DNA of 40,883 bases from a virus. Below, piece by piece: positions 1-40,883 of the stretch (positions within the stretch are counted from its first letter, which is position 1; the number at the start of each line of letters is the position of its first letter). The position numbers were made by a program, and so were the translations under genes. The DNA is taken from UHGV virus genome UHGV-0848487, one strand, 5' to 3'. The notes beneath the pieces were generated by a model, which did not search any database, was not told the DNA's origin, and worked only from the letters and a program-made list of their open reading frames with translations.

Positions 1-496
1 GACAGGTCAGGGTGTGTTGGATGCCCGCACCAGTAACAACCGTATCCGTTACTGCAGTAACAATAAATGGTTTTGCGTTATCGCCTGTTAAATCGGTAAA
101 TGCAATCAGGTCGCCTACCCCAACTCCGTCAGTGATAAAACTGCCGGTAGCGCGTGTGAACGTCTTGCCCGCGGGTGCGACGGTAATCGACAGACTGGAC
201 AGGGAAACACCGGATCGCCACGTAGAGCCTAAAGCACCAGCCAGCCAGTCATCCTGGCTTTTCGAGCTAAGCTCGATCGCGTATTCACCGCTAACCTGTT
301 TGTTACCGGTGCGGATGGATGTAGTTTCACGGCTGCCGTCCAGTTCGTTGGAGGTCAGCGTGTCGCGGGTGATAGCAGGAACGCCACCTGTGTTACGCAA
401 TGGCGACCAGACCGGGTTAGTCGGTGTTACGCCAGGGGTAGTTTCTGCCACATAGAATTGCGCAGTATTCGCGCCCTTAAAAGGAGTTGTAGCCAT
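1..496 (-). CDS. major tail protein, N-terminal part (partial; ORF runs off window start)
   Basis: Minus-strand frame opens at ATG 494-496 (MATTPFKGANTAQFYVAETTPG...) with no stop before position 1; lies downstream of neck genes; frame is continuous with the partial minus ORF at the window end if the ends are joined. Confidence 0.5.
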   Translation of the reverse strand, partial: MATTPFKGANTAQFYVAETTPGVTPTNPVWSPLRNTGGVPAITRDTLTSNELDGSRETTSIRTGNKQVSGEYAIELSSKSQDDWLAGALGSTWRSGVSLSSLSITVAPAGKTFTRATGSFITDGVGVGDLIAFTDLTGDNAKPFIVTAVTDTVVTGAGIQHTLTC

Positions 497-498
497 AT

Positions 499-915
499 TC
501 ACAGCCTCTTGGTGAATGCAATAAAGTTAATTGACAATGGTCGTTTGGCCCATCCGTTTTCTACAATCAGCGGCCCCAGGCTAACCGATTGAACCTCGGC
601 GCAGATGTCGTTACGAGAAAATGACTTACCTGCTTTGAATGCCGTGTTAAGTAAGTCTGCCATTTTATTGATTGGCGCGCTACCTTTCACCGATGCGTAG
701 TTAATGTCGACCTGATAAACACCCGCGCGTTGTTCCGTGAAGAACAAATCTGCTTGCTCGGTATCCGCCAGTAACATGTAACTTGCCAGATATGGCGTAT
801 CGGTTGACGTCGGCGCGTCGATGTTTTCAAGCGCGACCTTGATGCCGTTGGCGGTTCCGAAGGCTACCAGCGGAACATCGAACGCTTTTGTTAAGTCCTC
901 AAAGTAGCCCATCAT
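499..915 (-). CDS. tail completion / tail terminator-like neck protein (putative)
   Basis: 138 aa ORF immediately upstream of major tail protein in late operon; ATG at 913-915; function by position only. Confidence 0.35.
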   Translation of the reverse strand: MMGYFEDLTKAFDVPLVAFGTANGIKVALENIDAPTSTDTPYLASYMLLADTEQADLFFTEQRAGVYQVDINYASVKGSAPINKMADLLNTAFKAGKSFSRNDICAEVQSVSLGPLIVENGWAKRPLSINFIAFTKRL

Positions 916-1307
916 TTCACCTTGTTGGCTTCTTCGTTAATGAGTTGCTGGAAGCGAGACACATTAGTCCTGACAACCCCGGCTGGCGCCTGTTGCGACC
1001 AACCATACTCCAGCCGTTGCGCATACGGCAGATTATTTGTCAGCGTGAACTCATGCCAGTCAGCGGCTTTCAGCACGAAACTCGTAGCGTTTCCGGTTGC
1101 TGTGTTTCCTGATTTATCCGTAGCGTCCGTAATCCCGGAAGCAGGAGTACCGCCAGATGCCATCCAGTTCATACGAAAGCGGCCCGTGTCTACCGGACTC
1201 GCCTTTATAATAGCGGAAAACAGCTTGATAGACACCTGACGCATCACCTTCTCAGGGTTCTTCTTCGCCTTTTCCACGAACTTAGAGACATCGAGCGCGA
1301 AACTCAT
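912..1307 (-). CDS. head-tail joining / neck protein (putative, HK97 gp10-like by position)
   Basis: 131 aa ORF, 4-nt overlap with neighbours typical of coupled neck genes. Confidence 0.35.
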   Translation of the reverse strand: MSFALDVSKFVEKAKKNPEKVMRQVSIKLFSAIIKASPVDTGRFRMNWMASGGTPASGITDATDKSGNTATGNATSFVLKAADWHEFTLTNNLPYAQRLEYGWSQQAPAGVVRTNVSRFQQLINEEANKVK

Positions 1308-1663
1308 TTTCTCACCTGAATAAAGTACGCCACGACGTCATCGTTAACCATCTTCTTCTCAATAGCTACGATGGACCATTGCTCGCCGCCGAATTGCACC
1401 TTGTCTTCCATCTTCGGAACGACGCTGTAATCGGCTTTAACAATCATGTCGCCAGCCTGAATCGTCGCACCGTTTACCAGTCCCGCGTTTACCGGAACCG
1501 GAACGGCCTTCAACGGCAACACTTCATCCGCAGACCAGACGTACTCACCGAGAACTTCATCCCATACTTTTGAACCAGCGCGAATCAGAGATACCGTGCT
1601 ACCGAATTTGGTTAGCAGGCGCGTACCCACGCCTTGCATACGTTTACTGAAAGCGGTGCTCAT
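1304..1663 (-). CDS. head-tail adaptor / neck protein (putative)
   Basis: ORF track 1304..1744; preferred start ATG 1663 (MSTAFSKRMQ...) preceded by GAGGTG Shine-Dalgarno. Confidence 0.35.
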   Translation of the reverse strand: MSTAFSKRMQGVGTRLLTKFGSTVSLIRAGSKVWDEVLGEYVWSADEVLPLKAVPVPVNAGLVNGATIQAGDMIVKADYSVVPKMEDKVQFGGEQWSIVAIEKKMVNDDVVAYFIQVRK

Positions 1664-1758
1664 TTTAGCACCTCTTGCAGCGTCAAAAGAACACCGTAAC
1701 TGTGCAAGACTACCGCGGTAAGAAAACCAAAAACTACACCACATGTGAACTTATTCAT
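1660..1758 (-). CDS. small hydrophobic peptide (32 aa), hypothetical
   Basis: ATG at 1756-1758 preceded by GGAGG; translates MNKFTCGVVFGFLTAVVLHSYGVLLTLQEVLK; stop overlaps next ATG (ATGA); below the 60-aa ORF-track cutoff. Confidence 0.3.
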   Translation of the reverse strand: MNKFTCGVVFGFLTAVVLHSYGVLLTLQEVLK

Positions 1759-1808
1759 CAAGCGGCCTCCAGTCTCGAAATAACCAGTAGCGCAGAAGGC
1801 GCTGTGCC

Positions 1809-3115: not shown

Positions 3116-4120
3116 TTACCGGTCTGCGTCGGCGATTGCCAGAGTACCGAGGGTGTGCTTGTTCTCGGCAACAGCTTTGCCCCAGTTAGTCGCGGTGAAC
3201 AGTTCTGCGTCCAGCGGAGATTTACCGCCGTTGGTAACGTCCCAGCTGTAGCCTTTCAGTTTCAGGCCGAAGCTGTAGTCCGCCTGCCAGGTGGTCTGGA
3301 TGCGGGTGTTACCGTTGCTGGTGTCAATGTTGCTGATAATGTCAGAAGCATTATCAACGATGATGCCGTTCGCAACTACGGACAGAACCTTAGTCTTGTT
3401 CGGGCTGCCAGCTTCGTACGGAACCTTAGTCTTGTTCGGGCTGCCAGCTTCGTACAGCGCAGGGATGTCGGAAATTACGTAACGCTTGCCGAGAACATCG
3501 ACAACCATAACGTTGCCAGCAACGAACAACTGGTTTGCGTTGGTCAGCGCTTTGTCCACCAGAGTGTGGTAGGCCGCGCCGGTCATGATGTCAGTGACCA
3601 ACAACTGAGACTGGTCGCCGAATTTAGCGTGGCTGTTGTTCAGCACGTTCAGGGACAAGCCAGCGGTCGCGGATACATCGTTAACCAGTGCAGTCTGACC
3701 GGATACCGCGGCAACGGCGGCACCAACAGCGGTGTTAAGCTGGTCAGCTAACAGTGCGTCAGAGAACCCTTCGGAGATAGCACGAATCGCGCTCGCCGGG
3801 TCTTCGTTCAGCCAGGTCATTTGCGCAGGCTCGAACAGTACCGGTCCGAAGCCGCCAGCGACTTTAACGCCTACATGCTCGCCCTGAGTCAGCGCGGTAG
3901 CTGCCTGAGACGCGATAGTGGCGTAACGGTCAACGCGGCGTTTAGCGGAGGCAATCTGGTTAAAGAAAGACTCACGGGAGAAGTCACCGCGCCATGAAGC
4001 GGTAGACAGTACAATTGCGCCACCGGAGGCTGCGTTAAACTGGTCAGTTTTCTGGCCAAGCAGTTCGATAGTGGTACCGACGATATCGTCGTTATAAACC
4101 TTCATATCTGACAGAGACAT
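3116..4120 (-). CDS. major capsid protein
   Basis: 334 aa ORF following scaffold-like gene; followed by terminator; position in head module; contains 36-bp in-frame tandem duplication. Confidence 0.6.
   Translation of the reverse strand: MSLSDMKVYNDDIVGTTIELLGQKTDQFNAASGGAIVLSTASWRGDFSRESFFNQIASAKRRVDRYATIASQAATALTQGEHVGVKVAGGFGPVLFEPAQMTWLNEDPASAIRAISEGFSDALLADQLNTAVGAAVAAVSGQTALVNDVSATAGLSLNVLNNSHAKFGDQSQLLVTDIMTGAAYHTLVDKALTNANQLFVAGNVMVVDVLGKRYVISDIPALYEAGSPNKTKVPYEAGSPNKTKVLSVVANGIIVDNASDIISNIDTSNGNTRIQTTWQADYSFGLKLKGYSWDVTNGGKSPLDAELFTATNWGKAVAENKHTLGTLAIADADR
3384..3455. repeat. 36-bp tandem direct duplication (2 copies, 35/36 identical) inside capsid gene
   Basis: gaaccttagtcttgttcgggctgccagcttcgtacg repeated head-to-tail; encodes duplicated peptide YEAGSPNKTKVP. 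Confidence 0.9.
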
Positions 4121-4126
4121 ATTCTG

Positions 4127-4753
4127 TTATCCTCGTTTGCCGTATTTGGCGTTAAGTTTTTGCTGGATTACGTCCGCACCACCGGCCCCGCCAGTAGAAT
4201 TTTTGTTACCGGAAGCCCCGCCGCCGGTTGCTGCATCTGCTTTAATCAGATGCGAAAATGCTTTGTGCTCACGCAGATACTTTTTAAATTGCTCTGCGTC
4301 GGTGGTGATGACATTACCATCTGCACCTGTGAACTTGGTCACAACGTCATCGCCGTCAAATTCGGTCTTGACCATCATAGCGATAATATCCGCTGCGCTC
4401 TCATCAATCAACATTCCAGACAACTGGCTGATAACTGATTTACGTTCCGCGCCGAGGATACGCTCAGCCATTTTGCTAATCTTACCGTCTTTCTCGGCGA
4501 GTACTGGCTCATACTGACTGCGCAACGTTTTCTCGAATGCCTCAAGTTCGCCGTTCTGTTTTGCGCGTTCCTGTTCGGCTTTCAGCTTCGCATCTGCGGC
4601 TTCTTTCGCGGCAGCGGCGGCAGCTTTCTTTTCAGACAAGAGCTTCTCGTTGTTAGCTTTAAGACCGGATACCAGCGCGTCAACTTCTTCTTTGGTAAAC
4701 GTGGTCTTAGTCTCTTGTTGTTCGATAGTTTCGTCTTTCACTTCTTCGCTCAT
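4127..4753 (-). CDS. capsid scaffolding protein
   Basis: Acidic, Ala/Lys/Glu-rich coiled-coil protein directly upstream of capsid gene; preferred start ATG 4753 (MSEEVKDET) after GGGGA. Confidence 0.55.
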   Translation of the reverse strand: MSEEVKDETIEQQETKTTFTKEEVDALVSGLKANNEKLLSEKKAAAAAAKEAADAKLKAEQERAKQNGELEAFEKTLRSQYEPVLAEKDGKISKMAERILGAERKSVISQLSGMLIDESAADIIAMMVKTEFDGDDVVTKFTGADGNVITTDAEQFKKYLREHKAFSHLIKADAATGGGASGNKNSTGGAGGADVIQQKLNAKYGKRG

Positions 4754-4775
4754 CAGTATGTCCCCTGGACGTTGG

Positions 4776-4794
4776 AATCCGGGCCACCCGGATT
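4776..4794 (-). promoter_or_regulatory. perfect 8-bp stem / 3-nt loop hairpin in scaffold 5' leader
   Basis: AATCCGGG-cca-CCCGGATT about 20 nt upstream of scaffold ATG; no U-tract. Confidence 0.35.
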
Positions 4795-4832
4795 TACATG
4801 TCAAGAATAAATTATTCCAACATACAAGGCAA

Positions 4833-5096
4833 CTATTCCAGAATATTCCTCACGTAATCCTGCAACATGAACACTTTAAGTCTCAGTTGCCGTACACATT
4901 CTGCGTTCTGGACGTCAATAGCTAAATCCTCGTCCGCGTCGTTACTTGGCAGTGCCAGTTTGCACGGCGGCTGCATCATCGTCGTATCCGGGGATGGAAT
5001 TGGCGTTTGCGACGGCGCGGGACTTGAGTTGCACGCGCTCAGGGTCAAAAGTGCACACGCTGCGGCCAGGCGTTTTAATGTACTTAACGACTTCAC
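4833..5096 (-). CDS. Rz1: o-spanin (Rz1-like outer membrane lipoprotein)
   Basis: GTG start inside Rz in another frame; signal peptide with lipobox LSAC (MKSLSTLKRLAAACALLTLSAC); Pro-rich mature region; overlaps and extends beyond Rz 3' end. Confidence 0.7.
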   Translation of the reverse strand: MKSLSTLKRLAAACALLTLSACNSSPAPSQTPIPSPDTTMMQPPCKLALPSNDADEDLAIDVQNAECVRQLRLKVFMLQDYVRNILE

Positions 5097-5328
5097 GGGT
5101 GATTACCTCTGATTTCGTCTTGCCTTCGTTATCAGCGGCGGCGGCCTTCGATTCATCCTGCTGCTGCCGTTGTGTTTTCTTAGCTAACTCAGCCTGTGCT
5201 TTCTGCTGTTGCTGCGAAACGAGATTCTCCCGGCCTCCGTTCCAGCCGCTGCGATACTGGTAGATGCCGTGTGCGTAAGCCAGGATGATGAAACATGCCC
5301 CCGCTACGACAGTTGCTTTAAGATTCAT
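4942..5328 (-). CDS. Rz: i-spanin (Rz-like)
   Basis: 128 aa; N-terminal transmembrane segment, Gln/Ala/Lys-rich coiled-coil, overlapping lipoprotein gene in alternate frame; AAAGGGGAAAC RBS. Confidence 0.7.
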   Translation of the reverse strand: MNLKATVVAGACFIILAYAHGIYQYRSGWNGGRENLVSQQQQKAQAELAKKTQRQQQDESKAAAADNEGKTKSEVITREVVKYIKTPGRSVCTFDPERVQLKSRAVANANSIPGYDDDAAAVQTGTAK

Positions 5329-5352
5329 GTTTCCCCTTTCTCGATAAGTAAA

Positions 5353-5372
5353 GCCCCGCCTTAAAGCGGGGC
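5353..5372 (-). terminator. hairpin GCCCCGC-loop-GCGGGGC followed by TTTAC, upstream of Rz
   Basis: Stem-loop read on minus strand; near-identical element in opposite orientation at 16780..16802. Confidence 0.4.
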
Positions 5373-5648
5373 GCTAGTCCTTATCATTTAAACATAGAAA
5401 CGGCGTAATCTCAGTAAACCAGTTACTTTTTACACAAGCAATAGAGTATGGCCCTTCCGAACGCGTCAGCGTAACTACACTCAGGACTTACGTCCCGCTC
5501 CGTTACCTGCCCGCGCCGCGGTCGCTTGTTCATACTTCACAAGCTCAGGTGGAGCTTAGCACATTTTTGGTGAAAAGTCAACTATTCGAATAGTTTATTC
5601 CAACATTTACAATTGAGTGGAATGACTGGAATAATCACAGGCACTAAA

Positions 5649-5666
5649 AAGCCCCTTTCGGGGCTT
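5649..5666. terminator. intrinsic terminator hairpin (bidirectional-looking)
   Basis: AAGCCCC-tttc-GGGGCTT flanked by A5 on plus side (U-tract on minus strand) just downstream of the 153-aa gene. Confidence 0.6.
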
Positions 5667-5670
5667 CAGT

Positions 5671-6132
5671 TTATTCTTGCTTAGTAACCTTCGCTGCTTT
5701 ACTTACGGCCTCTATACCATCGGCATCAGTGACTTTAACGAAGTATTCACCAACTGCGTTAACCGTCAGAGACAGAGCCTCTTCCGGGGCGTTTACCACT
5801 TCCTTCCCGTCTTTGTACCAGGTCAGCGCATATGGTGCTTTGCCCGCCTTAACTTCGACAGCGATATTTGCGCTGCCGTCTGCCAGTTCAGCGTCCTGCG
5901 GTTGTACGGAGAAATACACATCACCAGCATCCGCCAGGTACTGAATCTCATAAAGCATACCTGCCGCTGGCAGCGCAATACCGGTCTTGTCCGCAAACGG
6001 CATATCGTCCACTGGTGTTCCGAGTACACTTTCGTCTTCAATAAACACCACGTTCTCGCCAGAGCCAGACACGCGGGCGTACTGGACTACGCGACGAGAC
6101 GGTACGTCAGTTACTTTGAAAAAGCCCATCAT
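5671..6132 (-). CDS. Ig-like domain head protein (decoration-like, putative)
   Basis: 153 aa; C-terminal segment YALTWYKDGKEV...GEYFVKVTDADG resembles Ig-like fold signature; ATGA overlap with upstream MuF-like gene. Confidence 0.3.
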   Translation of the reverse strand: MMGFFKVTDVPSRRVVQYARVSGSGENVVFIEDESVLGTPVDDMPFADKTGIALPAAGMLYEIQYLADAGDVYFSVQPQDAELADGSANIAVEVKAGKAPYALTWYKDGKEVVNAPEEALSLTVNAVGEYFVKVTDADGIEAVSKAAKVTKQE

Positions 6133-7208
6133 TATTCCCCTTTCAGATAATCAGCAACACGTTTATCGAGTTCCGCCATCTGCTTAAGCGTGAGCGGATT
6201 CCCGAAACCATCTACAGATATTACGCGAAACTCTTCCGGCGATATACCGCTGTTACGGAAAATCTTACCTCGCACCGGGCCGAGCGCCTGGTCCTGAAAC
6301 CACGCCGGTTGTTGTTTAAGGAACTCGTAGTAAGTGGTGTCTACGCTTACCTGAGTGCCACCTTCCGCGCCTTTAGCCGCGCGTTTTGCGCCTTTATCGA
6401 GGAAGTCGAACTCGGAACTGATTACCGGAGCCGTGCACGACCGGCAGTTCGGATGGGCAGGGGGCATCGGCCCCTTACCAATTTCCCACGTCATCCCGTC
6501 TCTGACCCTGCAAATCGTACTGGTGCGGCTGTCAAGCGTTGACACCCACTCGTACTTCTCGATGATGTCGTCGTTCTGGCGGTACGTCTCGTTACGGGCT
6601 TCGTTGGACACGTGAGACAGCGCGGTGCGGATGACGGTAGCGGCGTTACGCTCAGAGATGTCAGCCAGCCCACCGGCGCCTACTACATTCTTAACAATCT
6701 GCCGTGTTGTTTGACCTTGTACAAAGCCCATCTTAACGCCGGTTACAAGACGTGCTACTTCCGTTTCACCCCAACCTGACATCAGTTTAGTGAAATCAAC
6801 TGGCTTGCCACTCAATGATAATGGCTGAAACTCAGCAGCGGCCCACACCTGTTCGGCGGTGGGCGTAACAAATTCCGCATCTACGTTGGCGGTCAGGGTC
6901 TTTACGTTCCACTCAGCTTCATACACCGCCAGTTCCTTGAGGTCTTCTGCCAGCTTTGTTTGCCAGTCACCAGTAAGTCCTGTCAGTACTTCTTCAAGGT
7001 CACGTAACAGTTTATTCAGTCGCGCAGTGCTGCGACCGTCGTCGCCGAATAGCAGCACCTGCCGTTTGATTTCGTCCCGCATCTCCTTAATGAACGGCGC
7101 GAGGTCTTTCACCTCACCGGATGCGGTGCGTTGCAGCCATATTTGGTGGCTGATTAGTGATGTAAGTAAGCTCATAGATAAACCCTGTGGCGCTAAAGTT
7201 AATAGCAT
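6132..7208 (-). CDS. head morphogenesis protein (Mu F-like / SPP1 gp7-like minor head protein)
   Basis: 358 aa located directly after portal; conserved-looking C-terminal region with HPNCRSCTAPV motif. Confidence 0.65.
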   Translation of the reverse strand: MLLTLAPQGLSMSLLTSLISHQIWLQRTASGEVKDLAPFIKEMRDEIKRQVLLFGDDGRSTARLNKLLRDLEEVLTGLTGDWQTKLAEDLKELAVYEAEWNVKTLTANVDAEFVTPTAEQVWAAAEFQPLSLSGKPVDFTKLMSGWGETEVARLVTGVKMGFVQGQTTRQIVKNVVGAGGLADISERNAATVIRTALSHVSNEARNETYRQNDDIIEKYEWVSTLDSRTSTICRVRDGMTWEIGKGPMPPAHPNCRSCTAPVISSEFDFLDKGAKRAAKGAEGGTQVSVDTTYYEFLKQQPAWFQDQALGPVRGKIFRNSGISPEEFRVISVDGFGNPLTLKQMAELDKRVADYLKGE

Positions 7209-7218
7209 ACTATAAGAA

Positions 7219-7234
7219 AGCCCCTTTCGGGGCT
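7219..7234 (-). terminator. hairpin AGCCCC-tttc-GGGGCT between portal and MuF-like genes
   Basis: Same GCCCC-TTTC-GGGGC core as 5649..5666; weak U-tract on minus strand (TTCTT). Confidence 0.35.
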
Positions 7235-7244
7235 ATATGTGAAC

Positions 7245-8738
7245 TTACTGCTGGGTGGGGTCTTTTTGCTGCGCCGACTGCGGAATCTCCCCAGCCACCT
7301 GAGCAACAGCACCTAATGGCAGAGGCGCATCCTCGATAGCGTTCTGAATGTCCTCGTCTGTCCAGTCAGTTACCCCCGCCTTACGCAACGCAGCATAGTA
7401 AGCGGTAGCCGGTAACAGGCCCGCGTTAATATCCGCCATCCACTGCGCGCGGTCCTGAGCGGTCATTGGTTGCAGGAAGAACTCCATGTTCAGTTTGAAC
7501 TCAATTTCAGTGCTGTCGCTAATCCCAAGCATACCCGCGACCCAGCGCAACGCATCGGTATACGCCATGCTTACGTTACGTGCGATTGTTGCCATAACGG
7601 ACGTATCAGCGCCGCGTTGCAGGCGTGCCGATTCCGCGGTGATTTGCTGCGTCGGGGTAATAAGCTGTGCACCAATCTGGATTGCCTGGTTCTCTTTATC
7701 CAACATGTTCTGCTTGGCTAGGTTGTTCTCACCGGCCTGGACCAGAAACGCATTGCCGCCGTAACCGATGTTATGGCCGGAACGTGACCCCATACGCACT
7801 CCGTGAGGGTTGGCTTCTTTCCATTGCCCCATGCTCATGTTCTCACCGGGGGCGATGAACAGAGTAGGCTGGCCTACGACGAAGCTGGACTCCTCATTGT
7901 CCGCGCTGTTGCGGAAGTGCCCGATATTAAGTTCAGCCAACGGCAGCAAAGGTGCATCGTCAGGGGTTGAGTCGTTATTCCCTGCACCAATGAATGTGAA
8001 CGGAATCACCCCGACCGGAATATTACCGAGTTTCGGGAATATTTCGATATAGCCACCTTCCATCAGTGCACCTTTCTGGTTAAAGCGGTACAGACGCTGG
8101 CGATACTGGCCTTCGAAAATATCAAGGACGCGGTATTGCTCGCCGTAGTTGGGGCTGAACTCATCCGCGCCATCGGTGTACTCGTATTCCTCACGCAATA
8201 CAACCATAACCACACGATTAACAGACCCGACGCGCTGGAGACGCCAGTTGATGATATTCTCTGCGGTGTAGAAAGCGATTGTTGGGTTTAGTAAACCCTC
8301 GTTTTGCTCTGCCATGGTAGCTACTTCTACCGCGGGGGCGTCAACCAGCAACCCACCGCGACCAACAGCATCAATCTCATACAGAGTATCCTGTGCGTGC
8401 TGCCACAGGCCAACGCCCGACCCGTCACAGTTAGTGGTCAGGTATTCCATCTGAGACGGAATAATCATCTCGGGGTCTTTGCGCATTACGCTGCCGACCA
8501 TGCCTGAAAGCGTTCGCTTGGTGAAGTTGTAGCAAATTGCCCCTGCTTCGTATTCAGCCTGACGCTGGCGACCGTAAACCGGGTCCGGCTCATTCTTACC
8601 GACGTCACGTAGATACGATGTCAGGTCGCCAGAAAGCGCATGTCGCACCTTCTGCCACTTAGGGAAATACTCTTCGTACTGGCGGTGGTGGGTTTTAACG
8701 TTCTGCCCTTGCCCTGCGTTAATGTTTGCGGAAACCAT
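7245..8738 (-). CDS. portal protein
   Basis: 497 aa ORF immediately downstream of terminase large subunit and upstream of MuF-like gene. Confidence 0.65.
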   Translation of the reverse strand: MVSANINAGQGQNVKTHHRQYEEYFPKWQKVRHALSGDLTSYLRDVGKNEPDPVYGRQRQAEYEAGAICYNFTKRTLSGMVGSVMRKDPEMIIPSQMEYLTTNCDGSGVGLWQHAQDTLYEIDAVGRGGLLVDAPAVEVATMAEQNEGLLNPTIAFYTAENIINWRLQRVGSVNRVVMVVLREEYEYTDGADEFSPNYGEQYRVLDIFEGQYRQRLYRFNQKGALMEGGYIEIFPKLGNIPVGVIPFTFIGAGNNDSTPDDAPLLPLAELNIGHFRNSADNEESSFVVGQPTLFIAPGENMSMGQWKEANPHGVRMGSRSGHNIGYGGNAFLVQAGENNLAKQNMLDKENQAIQIGAQLITPTQQITAESARLQRGADTSVMATIARNVSMAYTDALRWVAGMLGISDSTEIEFKLNMEFFLQPMTAQDRAQWMADINAGLLPATAYYAALRKAGVTDWTDEDIQNAIEDAPLPLGAVAQVAGEIPQSAQQKDPTQQ

Positions 8739-8749
8739 TTGTTGTCCTC

Positions 8750-10000
8750 TTAAAGTGCGAAAGTCACCGGGATGTTGATTACTGGTTTAACCACCGGCAT
8801 CTCGTAAACTACAGGATAGCCGAGAGCATCCGCCATATGGTCAATGACGCCGTCTTTAGCTGGCTCTCCGTTATCATCGTATGCCTGCTGCTCCAGCGTC
8901 TTCGCTATCTCGGGGCATAAGTGGTCATTAACCCACAGCTTACCTTTTTCCAGTGCGGTATTCACGGCTAAAACACGGTCTTTAACCGGAGGGTTGGCGG
9001 ATTTAGCGCGAACATCGAAACCGGCCTGCTGGAGTAACGCAATATCTGAGATTGACGCCGAGTTGGTCTTGCGGTTCTTGCCGCTGGCGTCCGGGTAAAC
9101 GACTATGCGGTGGCCCTGCGACTTCCACTTCTCAGTAATTACACGCACGGTGTCCGGCGTATCAAACAGACCTTTCAGTTCTGCCACCGCGTGCCAGCCG
9201 TCTTTACGTTGCACATACACGGCGCTGGCGTTCTTCGTAACGTTGAAGTCCTGCCCGATGTACAGTGTATCGCCCGGTTGAATTGTCTCTTTGCTGCGGT
9301 GCTTGCGACGGTCATACGCATAATACACGCTGCCGGATGTCAGGTTAACGAACTCACCGTTCAGGTACGCGTTAATCAGTTGCGCGGGGTAAGTCTCGGT
9401 CAGTGAGCTAATGTAGTCAGGCGGCAGGAATCGCGCGTTCTCGTGTGTAGAAGCCTGCACCATCGAGTAACTCGGCGTCGGGTTCTCTTTGAACTTGGCG
9501 TAGACGAACTTGAACCCTTCCGGTGTCGTGGTGACAGAGATGTGGTTAGTTACGCCGGGGATAACCAGACGCATACGGGCGACTATTTTGTTCCACGCCA
9601 GCTCAGCTTTCTCACGGCTCAATACATCAAGCTCATCCACGACCGCAGCAGCGATTTTGAAGCCGACTATCGAGCCTGGGTTATCCATAGAACGGCAGAT
9701 AACTGTACCTAGCACCGTCTTACCGCGAGTAACCACGACTTCTTTGTCGCCAGATTTAACCAGCACATCGAGGCCGAGCAGGTTAGCGGCTTCCTCAAAT
9801 GTCGGGTAGAAGATGTCACGGATAGCCGGGTATGTCGGGCCGAAGTAACCCAGGCGCGTACCTGGATGCTTGAGCATAAACGTAAGCAGGTCAAGGCAGC
9901 CAACAAATGTCTTTCCGCTGCCGAAGCCGCCGACATAGGCTTTGTATTTGTTATCGCAATTCAGGAACAGTGCCTGCGGTGCGGATAGCTGAATACTCAT
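8750..10000 (-). CDS. terminase large subunit
   Basis: Walker A GGFGSGKT, Walker B-like AAAVVDE, C-terminal nuclease-like acidic motifs; 416 aa. Confidence 0.9.
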   Translation of the reverse strand: MSIQLSAPQALFLNCDNKYKAYVGGFGSGKTFVGCLDLLTFMLKHPGTRLGYFGPTYPAIRDIFYPTFEEAANLLGLDVLVKSGDKEVVVTRGKTVLGTVICRSMDNPGSIVGFKIAAAVVDELDVLSREKAELAWNKIVARMRLVIPGVTNHISVTTTPEGFKFVYAKFKENPTPSYSMVQASTHENARFLPPDYISSLTETYPAQLINAYLNGEFVNLTSGSVYYAYDRRKHRSKETIQPGDTLYIGQDFNVTKNASAVYVQRKDGWHAVAELKGLFDTPDTVRVITEKWKSQGHRIVVYPDASGKNRKTNSASISDIALLQQAGFDVRAKSANPPVKDRVLAVNTALEKGKLWVNDHLCPEIAKTLEQQAYDDNGEPAKDGVIDHMADALGYPVVYEMPVVKPVINIPVTFAL

Positions 10001-10542
10001 TCCTCTACCTCACCCATATTCGTTGTTACAATTTTACCTACAGGCTCTGCAACACTAAAAATAATCTCAGTCGGTGCTGTTTCTTCTGTGGACTCAACCG
10101 GTTTCTCTTTGCTGAGGCCCAGTTTAGCTGCGGCGAACGTAGCAGAGATGCCCGCGGCCCCTGTCTCAGTGAAATATGCCTCTTCCAGCGCCTGTGCTGT
10201 TTCATAGGCTTCTGCAAATGCGGGAATCTCACACAGCCACAGCTTAATAATCGGGATAGTTACGCCGATGTGTAAGGCGAAGCGGGCCAGTGACGGGGGT
10301 TTATCCTGAATCAGCGGGCGTTCGTCACCCTTAGACGTAGGCACGAGTTCCCACGACGTGCGGTCGAAGAACTCGATTAGCGCGTCGCAATAATCCGGGT
10401 CCCACAGCGCGGCGGAATTACGGGATGATTGATAAAGGCTCTGTTTACCGCGCGGTCGTTTACGGCGGCGGTTTGCACTAACAGCTTCTTCATGTGCAGC
10501 TTGCACCACCTCTGGCGATGGCTGCTTGAGTTTCAGCTTCAT
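9997..10542 (-). CDS. terminase small subunit (putative)
   Basis: ATGA overlap with terminase large subunit; preferred start ATG 10542 (MKLKLKQ) after AAGGGGA; basic N-terminal region. Confidence 0.45.
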   Translation of the reverse strand: MKLKLKQPSPEVVQAAHEEAVSANRRRKRPRGKQSLYQSSRNSAALWDPDYCDALIEFFDRTSWELVPTSKGDERPLIQDKPPSLARFALHIGVTIPIIKLWLCEIPAFAEAYETAQALEEAYFTETGAAGISATFAAAKLGLSKEKPVESTEETAPTEIIFSVAEPVGKIVTTNMGEVEE

Positions 10543-10564
10543 AGAATCCCCTTGCATATGCGTC

Positions 10565-10600
10565 TAAAGGGATTATATAAGGTGATTGGGCAGGATGTAC
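10565..10600 (-). promoter_or_regulatory. candidate late promoter (TATAAT -10, poor -35) upstream of terminase small subunit
   Basis: Minus strand reads caccTTATATAATccc about 30 nt upstream of the terminase small subunit ATG, immediately after a terminator. Confidence 0.3.
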
Positions 10601-10624
10601 AGAAAAGCCCTCGGTAGAGGGCTT
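10601..10624 (-). terminator. intrinsic terminator separating early small-gene block from late operon
   Basis: AAGCCCTC-ggta-GAGGGCTT with U-tract on minus strand. Confidence 0.55.
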
Positions 10625-10726
10625 GTATCAGTTGTATAGGCCGTGGCGTGGTGCTCTTTTACCGTCGCCGCCGTAATGGTCGTTAGCTACGGGAATGGCC
10701 CGGGCGTTAGGGATGATTAGTAGTCT

Positions 10727-10883
10727 CATTTGAAGAAACCATCCTTGACAAGCTGACGGTATAGTTTAGCTGCGTAACGCTCTGCCTGGCCTTTGCGCCG
10801 AAATATTTTCCCATTAACTGAATACTTATTTAACTCTGGCTCGTACCAAACTTGGTTGTCGATGAACTCCAGAATACTAATCA
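10727..10883 (-). CDS. hypothetical protein (52 aa)
   Basis: ATG at 10881-10883 overlapping upstream stop (ATGA); MISILEFIDNQVWYEPELNKYSVNGKIFRRKGQAERYAAKLYRQLVKDGFFK. Confidence 0.35.
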
Positions 10884-11284: not shown

Positions 11285-11286
11285 AA

Positions 11287-12180: not shown

Positions 12181-12213
12181 CTTCTCTACTCCGTTCTCGT
12201 TGTCGATGGAGTA

Positions 12214-12242: not shown

Positions 12243-12271
12243 CTAGTCATTGCGGAAGATAGATAAAAAAA

Positions 12272-27685: not shown

Positions 27686-27689
27686 AGTT

Positions 27690-30644
27690 TTATTTATCTT
27701 CTAGTGCTGCCAGCCTCTTCTCGAACTCGCGCATCTTCTTACGCTGATAGGCAATCTCTATGAAGAACATCTGGTCCGCCCTAACCCCCCATCTGCCGCC
27801 GGGAGGGGATACTTGTACAGTCTGGCCATCTTCATCAATATCATACGCAGCTTCAATTGAGTCGTAGCACAAGAAAGCATATTTACAATCGGTAGAATCT
27901 TTCTCCATAAGCCCATGGTTGACCAAGATGTCTCGCACATCTTGGGCTATCACACCGAAGTGTATCCTTGCAGTGTCACCCTTGATTGCTAGGCTTTCAA
28001 GCCACTTAAAAGATATTACATGTATATCCTCCCATGCGGTAAGGAGTTGTCCCTCAATTTCCTCTTTGTTCGTCTTAAGTGTACCATCAGACGTGTTTAT
28101 CGTACCGGTGGCCGCGTACACCGTAGTCCACCTATTACTTGCCGAACCTAAAGACACTCGCGCGTCTAAGTAAGGAAGAAAATTGTTGTATGAGTAGAAG
28201 CCTCCTGACGCATACATAATAGCCCTGTTAGGCGTTGCATGGTTTGCCCCGTACAGTTGCAGCAACGCACCATCGGAACTGGATGCACCATCACCACCGC
28301 TAACTATCAGTCTTTGACCCGATGGGGTTTTAGTGGGGACTGTTTTTGAAATCAGCCCGTAATCACCATCAAACCGTGCACGCACGGCGGACTGTTGTGT
28401 ACCATCGTATTCCAGCCCCGTTACATGCAGGGAGTACACGCTTACATCATTGTCAAACGTTAAAGGTGCTTCTACATGGCGTACACCATCTACCCCCATG
28501 GCGACAGGTATTGTACGGTTAGGAGTTGCTCCGTATTTGAAATCACGTGATACGTACGGGTGGTCTTCAATCTTTATCCGGTAGCTATATAAGTCAGCCG
28601 GATGCCCATCATGTTTGTACCATAACCTCGCACTGTTATCCCCTATGCTCCAGGGAGAGAAGAAGTCTTCCCCACCAAAGATATAGTACAACCAGCCATC
28701 TTTAACACAGACCGAGCCGACGCCGACAGCAGAGTTAACGATATGACCCTGGTATATTTGGTCGGTAATATTAAACCACTGAACATCATCTAAAGATGAA
28801 GGCCAGGACGACACATTAACTTTGCACATAAAGGTCCTCGGATACGAACCTTCATAGCGGCTGTCCTGCTCGCCACCTTCCCACTCACCAAAGGCACGTT
28901 CTGTACCAAAGATATAGAGATAGTCACCTACTTTAGCGAACGGAAGATTGGAGTGATGTACATTGTTCGGAAATCGCAAGTAGCTCCAGTTTTGCCCAGA
29001 ATCGGTGCTCATCGCCAGTGTAGAGCCAGGGGAAGTAGGTAATGTGCCGCGTGTGGTAAGGTATAACACACCACCATAACTTTTCACGCACGGCTCAGAA
29101 GCGTTATCAGCGTATGCCTGAGCGACAGTGCGACGAACGAATACGCCTGGATTGTCATACACGTTACTAAAATACAAGACACCGAGACGCCGAGGGGACA
29201 CATCGCCGTTGTGATAGCCGACAGCGATAGTGTAGTTAACATCATCTATGACCGCAAAACTATGTGTCTCCGTGACACACAAATCAGCGTTAGTGGAGTA
29301 TGCTACCCCAGGCAATTCGGTAATTTCCCACGGGCTGTCCCAGAATCGCGTTGCGAAGTTCCAGGTAACACCCGCATTGTTTATGGTGGAACTCGCCGGG
29401 CTTGAGAGCGTAACAGTGAACGTATTTCGGTTAATTATAGACGAAACCGTCATATTACCCGATACGCCAGTTGCCGATGTATTAGAGAAGTTAACCGCAT
29501 CTCCTGCTTTTAGGCCATGATTTTCTATGACAATGGTAGCAGTAGTGGAGCCAGAACTAATAGTTATTCCGCCGGTTGGGTGTCTAAAATACGGCATTGG
29601 GCGTGACCAAAGTTCTGCCTTCTTCATCCGCATATTAGATAAGTAGCGGGTTTCTATAACTGCATATAATCGGTTGCCACACGTACCCATGCTCATGCAG
29701 TGGTAGTTAACTCTGTCCGTAGAAACACTAGCGTTATAGTCAGCATGGATTGGAGTCAACCACTCAGGCATTGACCAAGTCTGCCCGTCGTCACCAGAGC
29801 GAACCCAAGCTACATGTAAGTTTTGAACGCCATGTCGTTCGCCTGCCATAAACGGGGCGTAAATAACATGGTCGTAGACGAAAGTTTTATCCTGCGTCCA
29901 TGCGTTGTAGAACGGGGTATCCGTCACCTTAGTTAGTGAGCCGTTAAAGAAGCCATCAGCTACATAAGTAAGCGGTTGCCCGGCTACGCGCTCGTAAACG
30001 AATGCAGCATTCTTAAATTTACTAATGTCAGGTAATTGGGAAACTTTATAAGTCAAACCCCTGCCGTCTATAATCCAATTGTTGGGGGAAGCTGCTAATA
30101 CATTAAAAATAGATTGAGTATCATCAGTTACGCCGTCGCCCACGGCGCCCCATGCGCGCGGGTCGTATTCGTCCTTCCATCGCGCCACATGTAAATCTGG
30201 GTACAGAATTGCACCATTTACATCAGATATTTGCTGCCGCAGTATGACCGACCCGACAGGCTGCCACGCCCCATCTGCCACGCCACCGGTGGACTGCGGA
30301 GAAGATGACGCTGGGATAATTTTTGGTAGAGCACCCAACCAATAGTACCAATCCCCGTCACCGCCAGAGGACGACGGCCACAAAACTGCGGTGTTTCGGT
30401 CGTTAGCGGATAGTGTACCGCCTGACGTGAAATCAAAATCTGCCAGTTTAAAACCTGCGTCACGCAACACGGCGGGGAGTGTCTTCTGCGTCTGTCCAGT
30501 AACCTGATTTGTCGCGTAATCAATATCGGCACCACCGGCGACACCGCCGGATTTGCCAGTGATAACCTCGGCCTCGAAAATCTGATGTTTCTTGGCGGTT
30601 TGTAAATCCGCCAGGCTTAAAACGTCACCGCATCCGCTTGACAT
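27690..30644 (-). CDS. tailspike / tail fiber with sialidase-like beta-propeller (candidate endosialidase) and C-terminal intramolecular chaperone domain
   Basis: 984 aa; Asp-box motifs SGDDGQTW and STDSGQNW; C-terminal SDGTLK ... HFGVIAQDV region resembling autoproteolytic chaperone domains of endosialidases/tail fibers. Confidence 0.7.
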   Translation of the reverse strand: MSSGCGDVLSLADLQTAKKHQIFEAEVITGKSGGVAGGADIDYATNQVTGQTQKTLPAVLRDAGFKLADFDFTSGGTLSANDRNTAVLWPSSSGGDGDWYYWLGALPKIIPASSSPQSTGGVADGAWQPVGSVILRQQISDVNGAILYPDLHVARWKDEYDPRAWGAVGDGVTDDTQSIFNVLAASPNNWIIDGRGLTYKVSQLPDISKFKNAAFVYERVAGQPLTYVADGFFNGSLTKVTDTPFYNAWTQDKTFVYDHVIYAPFMAGERHGVQNLHVAWVRSGDDGQTWSMPEWLTPIHADYNASVSTDRVNYHCMSMGTCGNRLYAVIETRYLSNMRMKKAELWSRPMPYFRHPTGGITISSGSTTATIVIENHGLKAGDAVNFSNTSATGVSGNMTVSSIINRNTFTVTLSSPASSTINNAGVTWNFATRFWDSPWEITELPGVAYSTNADLCVTETHSFAVIDDVNYTIAVGYHNGDVSPRRLGVLYFSNVYDNPGVFVRRTVAQAYADNASEPCVKSYGGVLYLTTRGTLPTSPGSTLAMSTDSGQNWSYLRFPNNVHHSNLPFAKVGDYLYIFGTERAFGEWEGGEQDSRYEGSYPRTFMCKVNVSSWPSSLDDVQWFNITDQIYQGHIVNSAVGVGSVCVKDGWLYYIFGGEDFFSPWSIGDNSARLWYKHDGHPADLYSYRIKIEDHPYVSRDFKYGATPNRTIPVAMGVDGVRHVEAPLTFDNDVSVYSLHVTGLEYDGTQQSAVRARFDGDYGLISKTVPTKTPSGQRLIVSGGDGASSSDGALLQLYGANHATPNRAIMYASGGFYSYNNFLPYLDARVSLGSASNRWTTVYAATGTINTSDGTLKTNKEEIEGQLLTAWEDIHVISFKWLESLAIKGDTARIHFGVIAQDVRDILVNHGLMEKDSTDCKYAFLCYDSIEAAYDIDEDGQTVQVSPPGGRWGVRADQMFFIEIAYQRKKMREFEKRLAALEDK

Positions 30645-38020: not shown

Positions 38021-39151
38021 ATGGCCAGGAAGAAAATAACCGACGAACAGTTACAGGAAGAATTGAACGCCGGTATGAAGAATATCGACATCGCCCGTAA
38101 ATACGGCATCTCCGACCGCGTTATTCGTATCCGTAAAGCGAAGCTGGCTAAGAAAGGTGTAGGCCACGGGCGTGACGTTAGTTACCTTGTACCGGACGGC
38201 TACAAGATTAAAGGAACGTCATCACTGGTGGATGAGTTTGGCAACACCAAGTTGCAATGGGTTAAGACCGACACCGATGCCGAACGTCAGGTTGAATTGA
38301 TGAAAGCCGTAATCGAAGGCATGAAGTCGGAGATTACACCAGTTGCACCTGTTAAAGCCGTTCGCGCCAAACGAGACGACAAGCTACTCAACCTTTACAC
38401 TGTGTCTGATTTCCATCTCGGTATGCTGGCCTGGGCTGACGAGAGCGGCGACGACTGGGACATGAAGATTGCGGAAGACCTGTTCTCCCGCTGGTTCGAC
38501 GCAGCGTTCCAGAAAGCACCGGATGCCGGAACAGGAGTTATTAATCTGCTGGGCGACCTTGCGCATTTCGATAGTCTGGACGCCGTTACACCTGCCAGTG
38601 GTCATGTTCTTGACGCTGACACCCGCTATCAGAAACTTGTACGCTACATGATTCGTATGGTCCGCCGTGTCATTGATATGGCTCTCGTTAAACATAAAAA
38701 TGTTCGCTTGCTTATCGTGCAAGGTAACCACGACGAAAGCGGAATGATTTGGTTAGCTGAGATGTTTAGTACGCTGTACGACAATGAGCCGCGTGTGTTC
38801 GTCGATACGTCGCCGGATGTTTACAAGATGGTGCAACACGGCAAAACGACGCTGTTCTTCCATCATGGGCATAAAGCACGATTCGACGCTATCGAACCGG
38901 TTATGATCGCCAAGTTCCGCAAAGCGTTCGGCGAGAGTGTTTACAGCTACGCCCACGTGGGTCACCTGCACCACCAAAAGATTGTAGAAAGCCGTAACAT
39001 GATTGTTGAGCAACACCGCACTCTCGCGGCTAAAGATGCATATGCCTCCCGCGGTGGGTGGATGTCGGGCCGCAGTGCAAACGTAATTACTTATAGCGCC
39101 GAATATGGCGAGGTCGCACGTTTAACTATTTCACCGGAGATGCTTGGATGA
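38021..39151 (+). CDS. HTH domain fused to calcineurin-like metallophosphoesterase
   Basis: N-terminal GMKNIDIARKYGISDRVIRIRK HTH-like; phosphoesterase motifs DFH, LLGDLAHFD, GNHDE, FHHGH, GHLHH in order. Confidence 0.7.
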   Translation: MARKKITDEQLQEELNAGMKNIDIARKYGISDRVIRIRKAKLAKKGVGHGRDVSYLVPDGYKIKGTSSLVDEFGNTKLQWVKTDTDAERQVELMKAVIEGMKSEITPVAPVKAVRAKRDDKLLNLYTVSDFHLGMLAWADESGDDWDMKIAEDLFSRWFDAAFQKAPDAGTGVINLLGDLAHFDSLDAVTPASGHVLDADTRYQKLVRYMIRMVRRVIDMALVKHKNVRLLIVQGNHDESGMIWLAEMFSTLYDNEPRVFVDTSPDVYKMVQHGKTTLFFHHGHKARFDAIEPVMIAKFRKAFGESVYSYAHVGHLHHQKIVESRNMIVEQHRTLAAKDAYASRGGWMSGRSANVITYSAEYGEVARLTISPEMLG

Positions 39152-39633
39152 AAGATATTGTGATTTTCGATTTAGACGGGACATTGGCAGATGGTACTCA
39201 TCGTTTACACCTGCTGCCGAAAGATAACTACGGCGAAACCTGTGCGTGGAAACCATTTAACATGGCGTGCAAAGACGATGCACCCATTAAAGATAACATC
39301 GAACTGTGTAACGCCCTTAATCGTCGCTATGCCGTTATTATCTTAACAGGCCGTAGTGATGACGCGGAAAAAGAAACCAGAATGTGGTTGCAGCGCCACC
39401 GCGTCGAATTTTATCAGTTAATCATGCGCAGCAAACACGACAACAGAAAAGACATCGTAATTAAAGAAGAGGTGTTGCGTGCTATTGGGCCGGAGAGAAT
39501 CTTGTGTGCATTCGACGACTCTCCAGCGGTAATAAAGCATTTCCGCGAACTCGGCATAACCACTCACGCAGTTACTGAATACGACTGTAACGGGAACTCT
39601 ACGCACTTAAAACCACATGGGAGTGATAAATAA
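39148..39633 (+). CDS. HAD-superfamily phosphatase
   Basis: Motif I FDLDGTL, motif II ILTGRS, motif IV FDDS; 161 aa. Confidence 0.7.
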   Translation: MKDIVIFDLDGTLADGTHRLHLLPKDNYGETCAWKPFNMACKDDAPIKDNIELCNALNRRYAVIILTGRSDDAEKETRMWLQRHRVEFYQLIMRSKHDNRKDIVIKEEVLRAIGPERILCAFDDSPAVIKHFRELGITTHAVTEYDCNGNSTHLKPHGSDK

Positions 39634-40187
39634 TGGCTAAGGTAATTATTCTTAATGGTCCTGCGGGCTGCGGGAAAGACACACTTGCTAGGGCGCTGGT
39701 AGAAATGGGCTTTGCGAAGGGTGTCGCCAGTTTCAAGAATCCGATGTTCAATATTGCTATGGCTGCGTTAGGCCAGGATGCTTACCGCGAGTTTCTCGAC
39801 GGCTACGACGACCGGGCGCGGAAAGAAAAGCCAGAGGGTTTCCTTAACGGGTTGTCTCGGCGTCAGTTCATGATTGCCATTTCCGAGCAATTCATTAAAC
39901 CGGTATTCGGTGATGATTATTTCGGTAAGTATCTTGCCGGAAACTTGCCCGACGGCGACGAAGTTTTTGTGGTGTCTGATGGCGGGTTCGCCAGCGAAGT
40001 AGCCCCTATCGTTGCCGCGGGGCATGATGTGAGAATCGTCCGCTTGCACAGAGACGGCCATACGTTTGAAGGGGACAGCCGCGGTTACCTGTACGATATT
40101 GATGGTGTAAAAGATTATGACACCTACATCATACCGGGTTACGTTAAATCGAACGCTATAGGCATTGCTTTAAGATTAGGCTTGTAA
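39633..40187 (+). CDS. P-loop nucleotide kinase (dNMP kinase-like; polynucleotide kinase not excluded)
   Basis: Walker A GPAGCGKDT resembling T4 gp1-type GKDT P-loop; 184 aa. Confidence 0.55.
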   Translation: MAKVIILNGPAGCGKDTLARALVEMGFAKGVASFKNPMFNIAMAALGQDAYREFLDGYDDRARKEKPEGFLNGLSRRQFMIAISEQFIKPVFGDDYFGKYLAGNLPDGDEVFVVSDGGFASEVAPIVAAGHDVRIVRLHRDGHTFEGDSRGYLYDIDGVKDYDTYIIPGYVKSNAIGIALRLGL

Positions 40188-40191
40188 GAAA

Positions 40192-40211
40192 AAGGCCCCA
40201 AACGGGGCCTT
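40192..40211. terminator. bidirectional intrinsic terminator at convergent junction
   Basis: AAGGCCCC-aaac-GGGGCCTT then agTTTTAT; same stem as 27666..27685 with complementary loop. Confidence 0.6.
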
Positions 40212-40215
40212 AGTT

Positions 40216-40883
40216 TTATGCGTATGTGATACGCTGAATAACAATAGACGACTGGTACTGGTTGCCAGTAGCCTGGCCTTCAATAGACTGAGTGATTGAC
40301 TCAGGTCCTCCAATCTCAGGTGTAGCCGCCGTAAGTTCTGCACGTTTCAAACTGAAAGACATAGCCCCGTTTACCCCAGCCAGAATAGAGTTAATCTCCA
40401 CCTGCTGCTCGTTGATAAACTTCTGAATCATCGCCATGTCGTACAGCTTACCGGAGATGGAGAAGGTGTTAGCTGCTCGGCTACGCTCCACAAACGCTAC
40501 GTTAGTGTTGCCGAGTTCGAACTGTGCGGACGCGCTGTTGTCGTTGGTGATGGTCAGGCTGTCGCAACGCAACGGCGTAGAACCGTCGAACACAGAAACA
40601 TCGACCGAGGAGAATGGCTCATCACCAAAAGTAACAGATGAGAAGTTGGAACCGGTCGGCGGCGTAGTGAGAATCTCCTGTCTGCGACCGATGAATGGGA
40701 AGCTGCCAGTTACCATCGCGTTAACAGCCTGTTCGATGGTAAAACCAGAAACTTCCACGCCTTTGGTTAACGTGTACGCGTCAGTACCGCCGCACTGGCC
40801 TTTGTACCAGGTAAGGATAGAGAACGTCTTACACGTGTTACCGGTTTCCAGCGTGTCGCCGGTTTTAGCCTTACTAGTTTTTG
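40216..40883 (-). CDS. major tail protein, C-terminal part (partial; ORF enters from window end)
   Basis: Minus-strand frame open from 40881 to stop at 40216 (ORF track gives 40216..40758 from an internal GTG); upstream codons translate without stop to the window edge. Confidence 0.5.
   Translation of the reverse strand, partial: KTSKAKTGDTLETGNTCKTFSILTWYKGQCGGTDAYTLTKGVEVSGFTIEQAVNAMVTGSFPFIGRRQEILTTPPTGSNFSSVTFGDEPFSSVDVSVFDGSTPLRCDSLTITNDNSASAQFELGNTNVAFVERSRAANTFSISGKLYDMAMIQKFINEQQVEINSILAGVNGAMSFSLKRAELTAATPEIGGPESITQSIEGQATGNQYQSSIVIQRITYA

Follow-up and report, generated by a model that had tools for sequence, protein, structure and literature searches.

The stretch of DNA analysed here (the window) is 40,883 nt long, and both of its ends lie within coding sequence on the minus strand (Table 1). 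At the left end, an ATG that is the reverse complement of positions 494–496 opens a frame of 496 nt down to position 1, which leaves one base over after division by three. At the right end, a single open minus-strand frame runs from 40883 to the TAA at 40216–40218 (668 nt). When the ends are joined, the two parts make 1164 nt, or 387 codons and a stop, with a junction codon CCA that takes its C from the complement of position 1 and its CA from the complements of 40883 and 40882. A frame is kept across two ends by chance one time in three, so the join is weak proof alone. The halves belong together because every relative has a single 388-aa gene to which both align over their full length, and because the ends are crossed by an independently assembled contig from the same genome, described below. 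At its termini the window has no direct repeat of at least 5 nt.

Table 1 Features of the window discussed in the text.
Feature	Positions	Strand	Details
Foreign bases GACA	1–4		Not phage genome, which reads TCTCGGT there
Tail tube gene, 5' part	1–496	-	ATG at 496–494; N-terminal 165 codons
Tail terminator	499–915	-	Pfam PF13554, E = 7e-14; directly precedes the tail tube gene
Major capsid protein	3116–4120	-	Pfam PF20036, E = 9e-103
Portal protein	7245–8738	-	PHROG 145, E = 4e-147; Pfam DUF4055
Terminase large subunit	8750–10000	-	Pfam Terminase_6N, Terminase_6C and Terminase_3; PHROG 2
Terminase small subunit	9997–10557	-	PHROG 3064 'terminase', E = 1e-72
Tailspike endosialidase (K1 capsule depolymerase)	27690–30644	-	Pfam End_N_terminal, End_beta_propel, End_tail_spike and Peptidase_S74 on an identical product; annotations of relatives
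Two-way terminator hairpin	40192–40211		Between the tail tube gene and converging plus-strand genes (38021–40187)
Tail tube gene, 3' part	40216–40883	-	221 whole C-terminal codons and 2 bases of the junction codon; TAA at 40218–40216; PHROG 290

Joining the ends yields a tail tube protein. Taking a score over the Pfam gathering cut-off across the whole model as the mark of membership, it belongs to PF18906 (Phage_tube_2), with E = 6e-40 and 138 bits (cut-off, 27), and residues 8–370 of the joined protein cover model positions 1–266 of 266. PDB entry 8xan_B, a 'Major tail structural protein', matches the product as well (E = 6.5e-19). PF18906 is recorded for all of the 388-aa homologues, and the protein is annotated in phage fKuEco01 as a tail tube protein similar to T5 pb6. 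Two nucleotides separate the tail terminator gene from the tail tube ATG downstream of it, and this order, terminator and then tube, is the one expected for a structural module and is repeated in all homologous loci that we fetched. The gene thus shares with the Phage_tube_2 proteins of siphophages a match over the whole model, a position after the tail terminator and a major tail relative in the PDB, and with its junction corrected (388 aa) it does not differ from that family. The first-pass annotation had read the two partial open reading frames as one major tail protein of roughly 387 aa; recomputation reproduced its coordinates, frame, junction codon and length, and the Pfam match, the PDB match and the alignment to a single 388-aa gene bear out the assignment.

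Comparison with phage genomes places the window in a known group. In megablast, phages K1G, K1H, fKuEco01, fTaEco03 and ULINTec2, whose record taxonomy is Guernseyvirinae; Kagunavirus, have 91–96% nucleotide identity to the window over 82–100% of each genome half. Under the ICTV rule for a genus, nucleotide identity to accepted members is about 70% or more across the genome, and the window lies above this value for Kagunavirus. The alignments to ULINTec2 (40,815 nt) and fKuEco01 (40,825 nt, a circular record) are collinear around the whole circle, as a common gene order in the genus requires, and cover 37,466 and 36,474 of the 40,883 nt, respectively; between the last and first aligned bases these relatives have 21 nt, versus 18 nt in the window. 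With the phages of K1 Escherichia coli in this genus (K1G, K1H, K1ind2/3, fKuEco01, fTaEco01/03, ULINTec2 and UTI89UKE1), to which its identity is 92–96%, the window also shares the gene order around the circle, the same endosialidase tailspike, which marks the phage as K1-specific, and the same module of tail terminator, tail tube and converging kinase, phosphatase and exonuclease genes. Several of those records were deposited as circular. Their start points differ from that of the window, which begins within the tail tube gene; the fKuEco01 record, for one, starts at the terminase genes. A cytosine methylase gene of ULINTec2 and fKuEco01 is absent from the window. We conclude that the window very probably represents the essentially complete genome of a virulent siphophage that infects E. 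coli K1 and belongs to the genus Kagunavirus (Guernseyvirinae), assembled as a circle and opened in the tail tube gene, with a small defect at its ends.

Two further departures set the window apart from its K1 relatives. One is a 36-nt in-frame tandem duplication in the major capsid gene (3384–3419 and 3420–3455), and a 30-mer across its junction is absent from viral contigs; the other is the end defect, in which seven bases are replaced by four. Several further features were recorded. Hairpins similar to the one beside the tail tube gene occur at 5646 and 27664 (repeat family D2), and no long internal direct repeats were found in the window, only short, scattered ones. A 188-aa open reading frame (14507–15073) has no record on protein look-up, probably owing to a differing start-codon call, and the look-up of a 376-aa protein (38021–39151) was too unspecific to point to one contig, as this protein is strongly conserved.

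The end defect is revealed by the relatives. All 34 complete homologous open reading frames that we fetched encode 388 aa, and each of the 21 readable junctions carries TCTCGG(T/C) in place of the window's GACA. A probe of 948 nt spanning the join matches 244 phage records in a single unbroken alignment, each time over 951 nt, and its 3-nt gap and four mismatches sit exactly at the window ends. In the phage collection, every megablast match begins at query base 5, and none covers bases 1–4. The junction as recorded is thus ...TTTTTG-GACA-GGTCAGG..., versus ...TTTTTG-TCTCGGT-GGTCAGG... when corrected, and the true protein is 388 aa (...HTLTTETKTSK...), versus 387 aa (...HTLTC-PKTSK...) from the simple join. 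As the defect amounts to a net loss of 3 nt, the frame was kept at the join by accident. The corrected circle consists of window positions 5–40883 followed by TCTCGGT, or 40,886 nt.

An independent assembly of sequencing run SRR5665071 by Logan provides a direct view of the same site. Contig SRR5665071_238 (27,517 nt) is found exactly in the corrected circle, running from window position 16784 through 40883 to 3414, and matches exactly if window bases 1–4 are replaced by TCTCGGT; in an exact comparison it was not found in the simple join of the window ends. The second contig, SRR5665071_1849 (13,381 nt), is identical to window positions 3426–16806, and the two together cover all but 11 nt of the 40,886-nt circle. 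The record ends are therefore bridged in an assembly made independently, with TCTCGGT at the join, and the breaks of that assembly lie at 3414/3426 and 16784/16806, the former because a 35-nt repeat exceeds k = 31. The exact identity over 40,868 bases, together with the shared and rare capsid-gene duplication, suggests that the window and SRR5665071 probably come from the same sample; our literature search found no publication for this run.

These data allow us to judge whether the junction might be real as written, that is, a 387-aa allele (..LTCPKTSK..) in an exact 40,883-nt circle that happened to be opened at that spot. Such an allele would agree with the in-frame join and the full-length Pfam match, and the affected residues lie in a region that the Pfam model skips. 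It would also require that a replacement of 7 nt by 4 nt coincide to the base with the ends of the record, one position in about 40,900, while TCTCGGT stands in a genome that agrees with the window at all other bases compared, and TCTCGG(T/C) in 21 of 21 relatives. Searches of the viral, metagenome and genome collections found neither the GACA variant (GACAGGTCAGGG...) nor, in the contigs of these three, the window's own 5' end (GACAGGTCAGGGTGTGTTGGATGCC); the simple-join version that corresponds to the 387-aa allele reads ...TTTTTGGACAGGTCAGG..., and neither the joined 387-aa protein nor either partial product has an exact match in a collection of 15 billion proteins. We therefore reject a real allele as very improbable and, given TCTCGGT in the Logan contig and in the relatives, close to refuted; the 387-aa version of the tail tube protein is an artefact.

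A contig that has lost more than a few bases, or a chimera of two genes or genomes, is even less probable. Nothing beyond the missing terminal overlap speaks for it, and against it both halves align to one gene with a net loss of only 3 nt, the length falls within the 40.6–45.8 kb of the relatives, the full gene set is collinear with that of complete relatives, and the two contigs of the independent assembly fit this circle exactly. On the exact tiling, the one-gene alignment and the collinearity, this explanation was rejected. The earlier proposal of a complete genome opened in the tail gene is upheld by the collinearity and the Logan contig; the exact join that went with it is not, as 7 nt have been lost at the join and 4 nt do not belong there, and the record is complete only to within the junction bases. 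A homologue alignment with residues missing at the junction had been named as a refutation of that proposal, and the one residue found lacking refines the reading but does not overturn it.

The origin of the four foreign bases may be suggested by their sequence. Window bases 1–5 (GACAG) equal the last five bases of the Nextera transposase mosaic end, and in such libraries read-through after ...CCCTGAC would give CTGTCTCTTATACACATCT. Our guess is that an untrimmed adapter stub was left at a ragged contig end, and this is a candidate origin only: a match of 4–5 bases is expected by chance about once in 256 for each adapter tried, and a stub leaves the loss of seven bases unexplained.

The bare ends of the window could instead be read as genuine termini of linear virion DNA, produced at a cos site, a direct terminal repeat or a preferred headful cut within the tail tube gene. 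Circular de Bruijn assemblies usually carry a k-mer overlap at their ends and the window has none, and the foreign stub is joined straight to phage sequence at position 5/6, both of which would fit such ends. The independent assembly, however, passes the site unbroken and has its own breaks elsewhere, the site is distant from the terminase genes (8750–10557), and neither a terminal repeat nor a motif resembling a cohesive end is present; relatives in which termini are lacking or a pac pattern is seen (PMC9825357, PMC6776780) add to the case against. True ends, and with them a genome bounded by direct terminal repeats or cos ends, were rejected as exceedingly unlikely because the contig runs across the site and there is no terminal repeat. 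There is a very slight chance that the stub and the absent overlap together reflect a genuine DNA end favoured within the tail tube gene, for instance where headful cuts recur or nicks cluster, or that a 387-aa minority variant was present in the stock.

The preferred reading of a circle opened in the tail tube gene raises the question of how this DNA is packaged. The sequence by itself establishes a circular assembly, not the form of the virion DNA. Headful (pac) packaging would yield terminally redundant and circularly permuted molecules with no fixed ends, and it would most likely account for the circular assembly; the assembled sequence has no fixed terminal repeat or cohesive end, a finding that agrees with headful packaging and is weak on its own. 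Published PhageTerm analyses returned no termini for fBC-Eco01 (PMC9825357), a pac/headful mode for the Guernseyvirinae-like phage Shashou (PMC6776780) and a headful mode for the Jerseyvirus Se_F1 (PMC9409062), and genes that span contig ends are described as the usual outcome when SPAdes assembles permuted genomes (PMC9409062). The large terminase subunit is 98.6–100% identical to those of Jersey, fBC-Eco01 (99.5%) and DUEC01. By analogy with the relatives analysed with PhageTerm, we infer that the phage of the window probably uses headful packaging. The earlier suggestion of a circular or terminally redundant, permuted genome thus stands directly for the circular assembly, and for permuted virion DNA only by way of these published results.

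The terminase itself does not classify the packaging mode, as the large subunit has no significant BLASTP similarity to P22 gp2 (E = 0.05) or T1 TerL (E = 0.26) and neither subunit has a match in PDB sequence searches; the small subunit likewise shows no significant BLASTP similarity to that of T1. The fKuEco01 homologue of the small subunit is annotated as P22 gp3-like, and the P22 record places the pac site inside gene 3; by this analogy, a pac site, if there is one, would be expected in or near the small subunit gene. As previously proposed, any packaging site is internal to the window, which follows from a circle opened inside the tail gene. Like P22, T1-like phages and other Guernseyvirinae of the pac type, the window is a circular assembly with no fixed ends, with a small terminase gene that adjoins the large one and with genes that can span arbitrary contig ends. 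Contigs of pac phages typically have a terminal k-mer overlap, whereas the window has none and shows instead a 7-nt gap and four foreign bases.

This phage is of an ordinary and already known kind, with an arbitrary point of linearisation and a small defect at the assembly ends, and the importance of the finding is practical only. An in-frame join over contig ends is weak evidence alone, and here the frame was kept only because the defect, by chance, changed the length by a multiple of three. If the record is annotated as a linear molecule, the major tail (tube) gene is lost, split into two partial open reading frames; if it is plainly circularised, the resulting 387-aa protein is false, as two of its residues are wrong and one more is lacking.

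On the minus strand, an ATG at 496–494 opens a reading frame that reaches position 1 (496 nt: 165 codons and one further base), and from position 40883 exactly one minus-strand frame is open, running 668 nt to a TAA at 40218–40216. End to end, the parts amount to 1164 nt (387 codons and a stop), CCA being the codon formed at the junction, and on recomputation the coordinates and arithmetic of the first-pass annotation are correct. As a frame is kept across such a join one time in three by chance, the real test is whether both halves lie in one gene. The joined product matches the whole Pfam model PF18906 (Phage_tube_2) with 138 bits (cut-off 27; E = 6e-40) and also matches PHROG 290, category tail, while a sequence comparison of the corrected protein (see below) with solved structures returns one match, 8xan_B, “Major tail structural protein” (E = 6.5e-19). 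Homologues in relatives are annotated as tail tube or major tail protein. Since profile and structure matches, gene neighbours (table) and these annotations agree, the label “major tail protein” given in the first pass was right.

The join, in which base 40883 directly abuts base 1, is not seamless. A 948-nt probe placed over it aligns in one piece to 244 phage records, always spanning 951 nt. The alignment places the difference exactly at the window ends, where relatives read ...AGTTTTTG TCTCGGT GGTCAGGG... and the joined window ...AGTTTTTG GACA GGTCAGGG.... All readable junctions among the fetched loci (n = 21) carry TCTCGGT (19) or TCTCGGC (2). Window bases 1–4 are matched by no record in the phage collection, every match beginning at base 5, and a GACAGG variant was not found in the viral, metagenome or genome collections. 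At the protein level, relatives read ...HTLTTETKTSK... and the joined window ...HTLTC-PKTSK...; complete homologous ORFs encode 388 aa in 34 of 34 cases, and neither the joined nor the partial products were found in the protein collection. The frame is kept at the join because the net change is −3 nt.

Exact-protein look-ups led to two contigs from an independent Logan assembly of run SRR5665071. Contig SRR5665071_238 (27,517 nt, reassembled from three overlapping fetches) is found exactly in a circle composed of window 5..40883 followed by TCTCGGT, beginning at window 16784 and continuing over the ends to 3414. A window joined without this correction does not contain it. Contig SRR5665071_1849 (13,381 nt) is identical to window 3426–16806. 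Of the corrected circle's 40,886 positions, 40,875 lie in at least one of the two contigs, without a mismatch. The window ends are true neighbours, because the same genome, independently assembled and broken elsewhere, runs unbroken over them, and the record represents a complete genome, cut open within the tail tube gene, from which seven real bases are missing and whose first four are foreign. The proposal of one gene with its frame kept thus holds, but its length of roughly 387 aa does not: the true protein has 388 aa, as in the 34 ORFs and in contig _238, and the 387-aa form is an artefact. That a real 387-aa allele exists and the join is true as written is very improbable, as its 7-to-4 nt change would have to fall exactly, base for base, at the ends of the record, and the independent contig contradicts it. 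Slightly less credible still are true physical ends inside the tail tube gene, given that contig _238 reads through the site, that the site is distant from the terminase genes, and that there is no terminal repeat; comparison of the window ends found no direct repeat of at least 5 nt common to both.

Both window halves match Kagunavirus (Guernseyvirinae) siphophages of E. coli K1 at 91–96% identity over most of their length (for example K1G, K1H, K1ind2/3, fKuEco01, fTaEco01/03, ULINTec2 and UTI89UKE1). BLAST matches to two complete relatives, ULINTec2 (40,815 nt) and fKuEco01 (40,825 nt, deposited as circular), are collinear round the entire circle, and from the final aligned base of the window to its first there are 18 nt in the window versus 21 nt in the relative. 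The expected gene set is complete, and the length of 40,883 nt is inside the genus range of 40.6–45.8 kb. An incomplete or chimeric contig, to which we give as little credence as to physical ends, is ruled out, since the two contigs tile the circle exactly and complete relatives are collinear with it. The circular genome linearised in the major tail gene, as first proposed, is borne out by this collinearity and by the contig that crosses the ends.

Coordinates of features in the window
Feature	Coordinates	Remarks
Tail terminator gene	499-915	PF13554; tail tube gene starts 2 nt downstream
Capsid protein	3116-4120	minus strand
Portal	7245-8738	
Large terminase (TerL)	8750-10000	
Small terminase	9997-10557	
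Endosialidase tailspike	27690-30644	
Mu-F-like head protein, tail completion genes, tape measure, polymerase, helicases		in window
Two-way terminator hairpin	40192-40211	at tail tube gene end, facing three converging plus-strand genes; scores as terminator on both strands
Hairpin terminators	5646-5675, 27664-27693, 40190-40219	
Promoter-like 30-mer copies	16496-16525, 19999-20028, 20043-20072, 22437-22466, 25844-25873	

Several other features of this genome were observed. Where gene blocks meet there are three G+C-rich hairpin terminators (AAAAGGCCCCnnnnGGGGCCTTAGTTTTAT) that closely resemble one another. A 30-nt promoter-like element (TTGACAnnTGAATAGnnnGCTATTATAGTT) occurs in five copies, all ahead of plus-strand replication genes; with a −35 TTGACA, a −10-like TATTAT/TATAGT and a spacer inverted repeat AATAG...CTATT, these look like copies of one operator-bearing promoter of early or middle type. 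The early region also holds an exact 23-nt direct repeat (AAGCCTGCGGTCAGTTATACGGA; 16028–16074), its two copies starting 24 nt apart. Unlike ULINTec2 (27210–28034) and fKuEco01, the window has no cytosine-C5 DNA methylase gene; at 26084–26121, 36 nt stand for ~845 nt of the relatives.

The capsid gene contains a 36-nt in-frame tandem duplication (3384–3419 and 3420–3455, 35/36 identical) that adds 12 residues (YEAGSPNKTKVP / YEAGSPNKTKVL), giving a major capsid protein of 334 aa compared with 322 aa in ULINTec2 and fKuEco01. It holds the only repeated 31-mers in the genome, which for k = 31 predict the Logan breaks at 3414 and 3426 to the base, and its junction is therefore present in the SRR5665071 reads; neither the fetched loci nor the collection of viral contigs yielded the duplication. 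At the second break the contigs overlap by 23 nt (16784–16806) on a G+C-rich hairpin (GCCCCGC TTTA GGGCGGGGC). No repeat in the genome explains this break; coverage may dip at the hairpin, or the sample may hold a variant.

As for the foreign bases, the Nextera mosaic end (AGATGTGTATAAGAGACAG) finishes with the same five letters, GACAG, that stand at window 1–5. On the opposite strand the contig end reads ...CCCTGAC+CTGTC, and read-through into this adapter presumably begins with CTGTC. Most trimmers miss a five-base adapter stub, and none of the other adapters known to us fits. Four arbitrary bases match by chance about once in 256 per adapter considered. As a lead, GACA might be an untrimmed Nextera remnant, an origin that leaves the missing seven bases unexplained.

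Headful-packaging tailed phages have terminally redundant, circularly permuted DNA. Because of this, their reads assemble into a circle, and genes may span arbitrary contig ends. Such genes are described explicitly for SPAdes contigs (PMC9409062). PhageTerm classed Jerseyvirus Se_F1 as headful (PMC9409062), predicted a pac (headful packaging) site in the Guernseyvirinae-like coliphage Shashou (PMC6776780) and gave no obvious termini for Kagunavirus fBC-Eco01 (PMC9825357), whose large terminase shares 99.5% identity with the one here. In fKuEco01 the small terminase carries the annotation P22 gp3-like. Searches of PDB sequences with TerL and TerS gave no match, and BLASTP to P22 and T1 terminases gave no significant similarity. 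The assembly is circular without a terminal repeat, and by analogy with these phages the virion DNA is likely permuted; if packaging is of the pac type, its site is expected within or close to terS (~10.0–10.6 kb), well inside the window, where the first-pass annotation placed any such site. TerL shares 98.6% identity with its counterpart in Salmonella phage Jersey, but only ~54% with the TerL found in the majority of the remaining Salmonella Jerseyviruses and in some Kagunaviruses (vB_VIPECOTH07, vB_Eco_K-01), and ~40% with that of Kagunavirus LM02P1. This suggests that the subfamily has a minimum of two or three strongly divergent packaging modules, swapped between genera.

Phage genomes that assemble as circles and are linearised at an arbitrary point are well known, as is the genus here; the one peculiarity is a small defect at the ends that passes for a clean in-frame join. 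The practical value lies in the corrected genome, window 5..40883 plus TCTCGGT (40,886 nt), with a tail tube protein of 388 residues.
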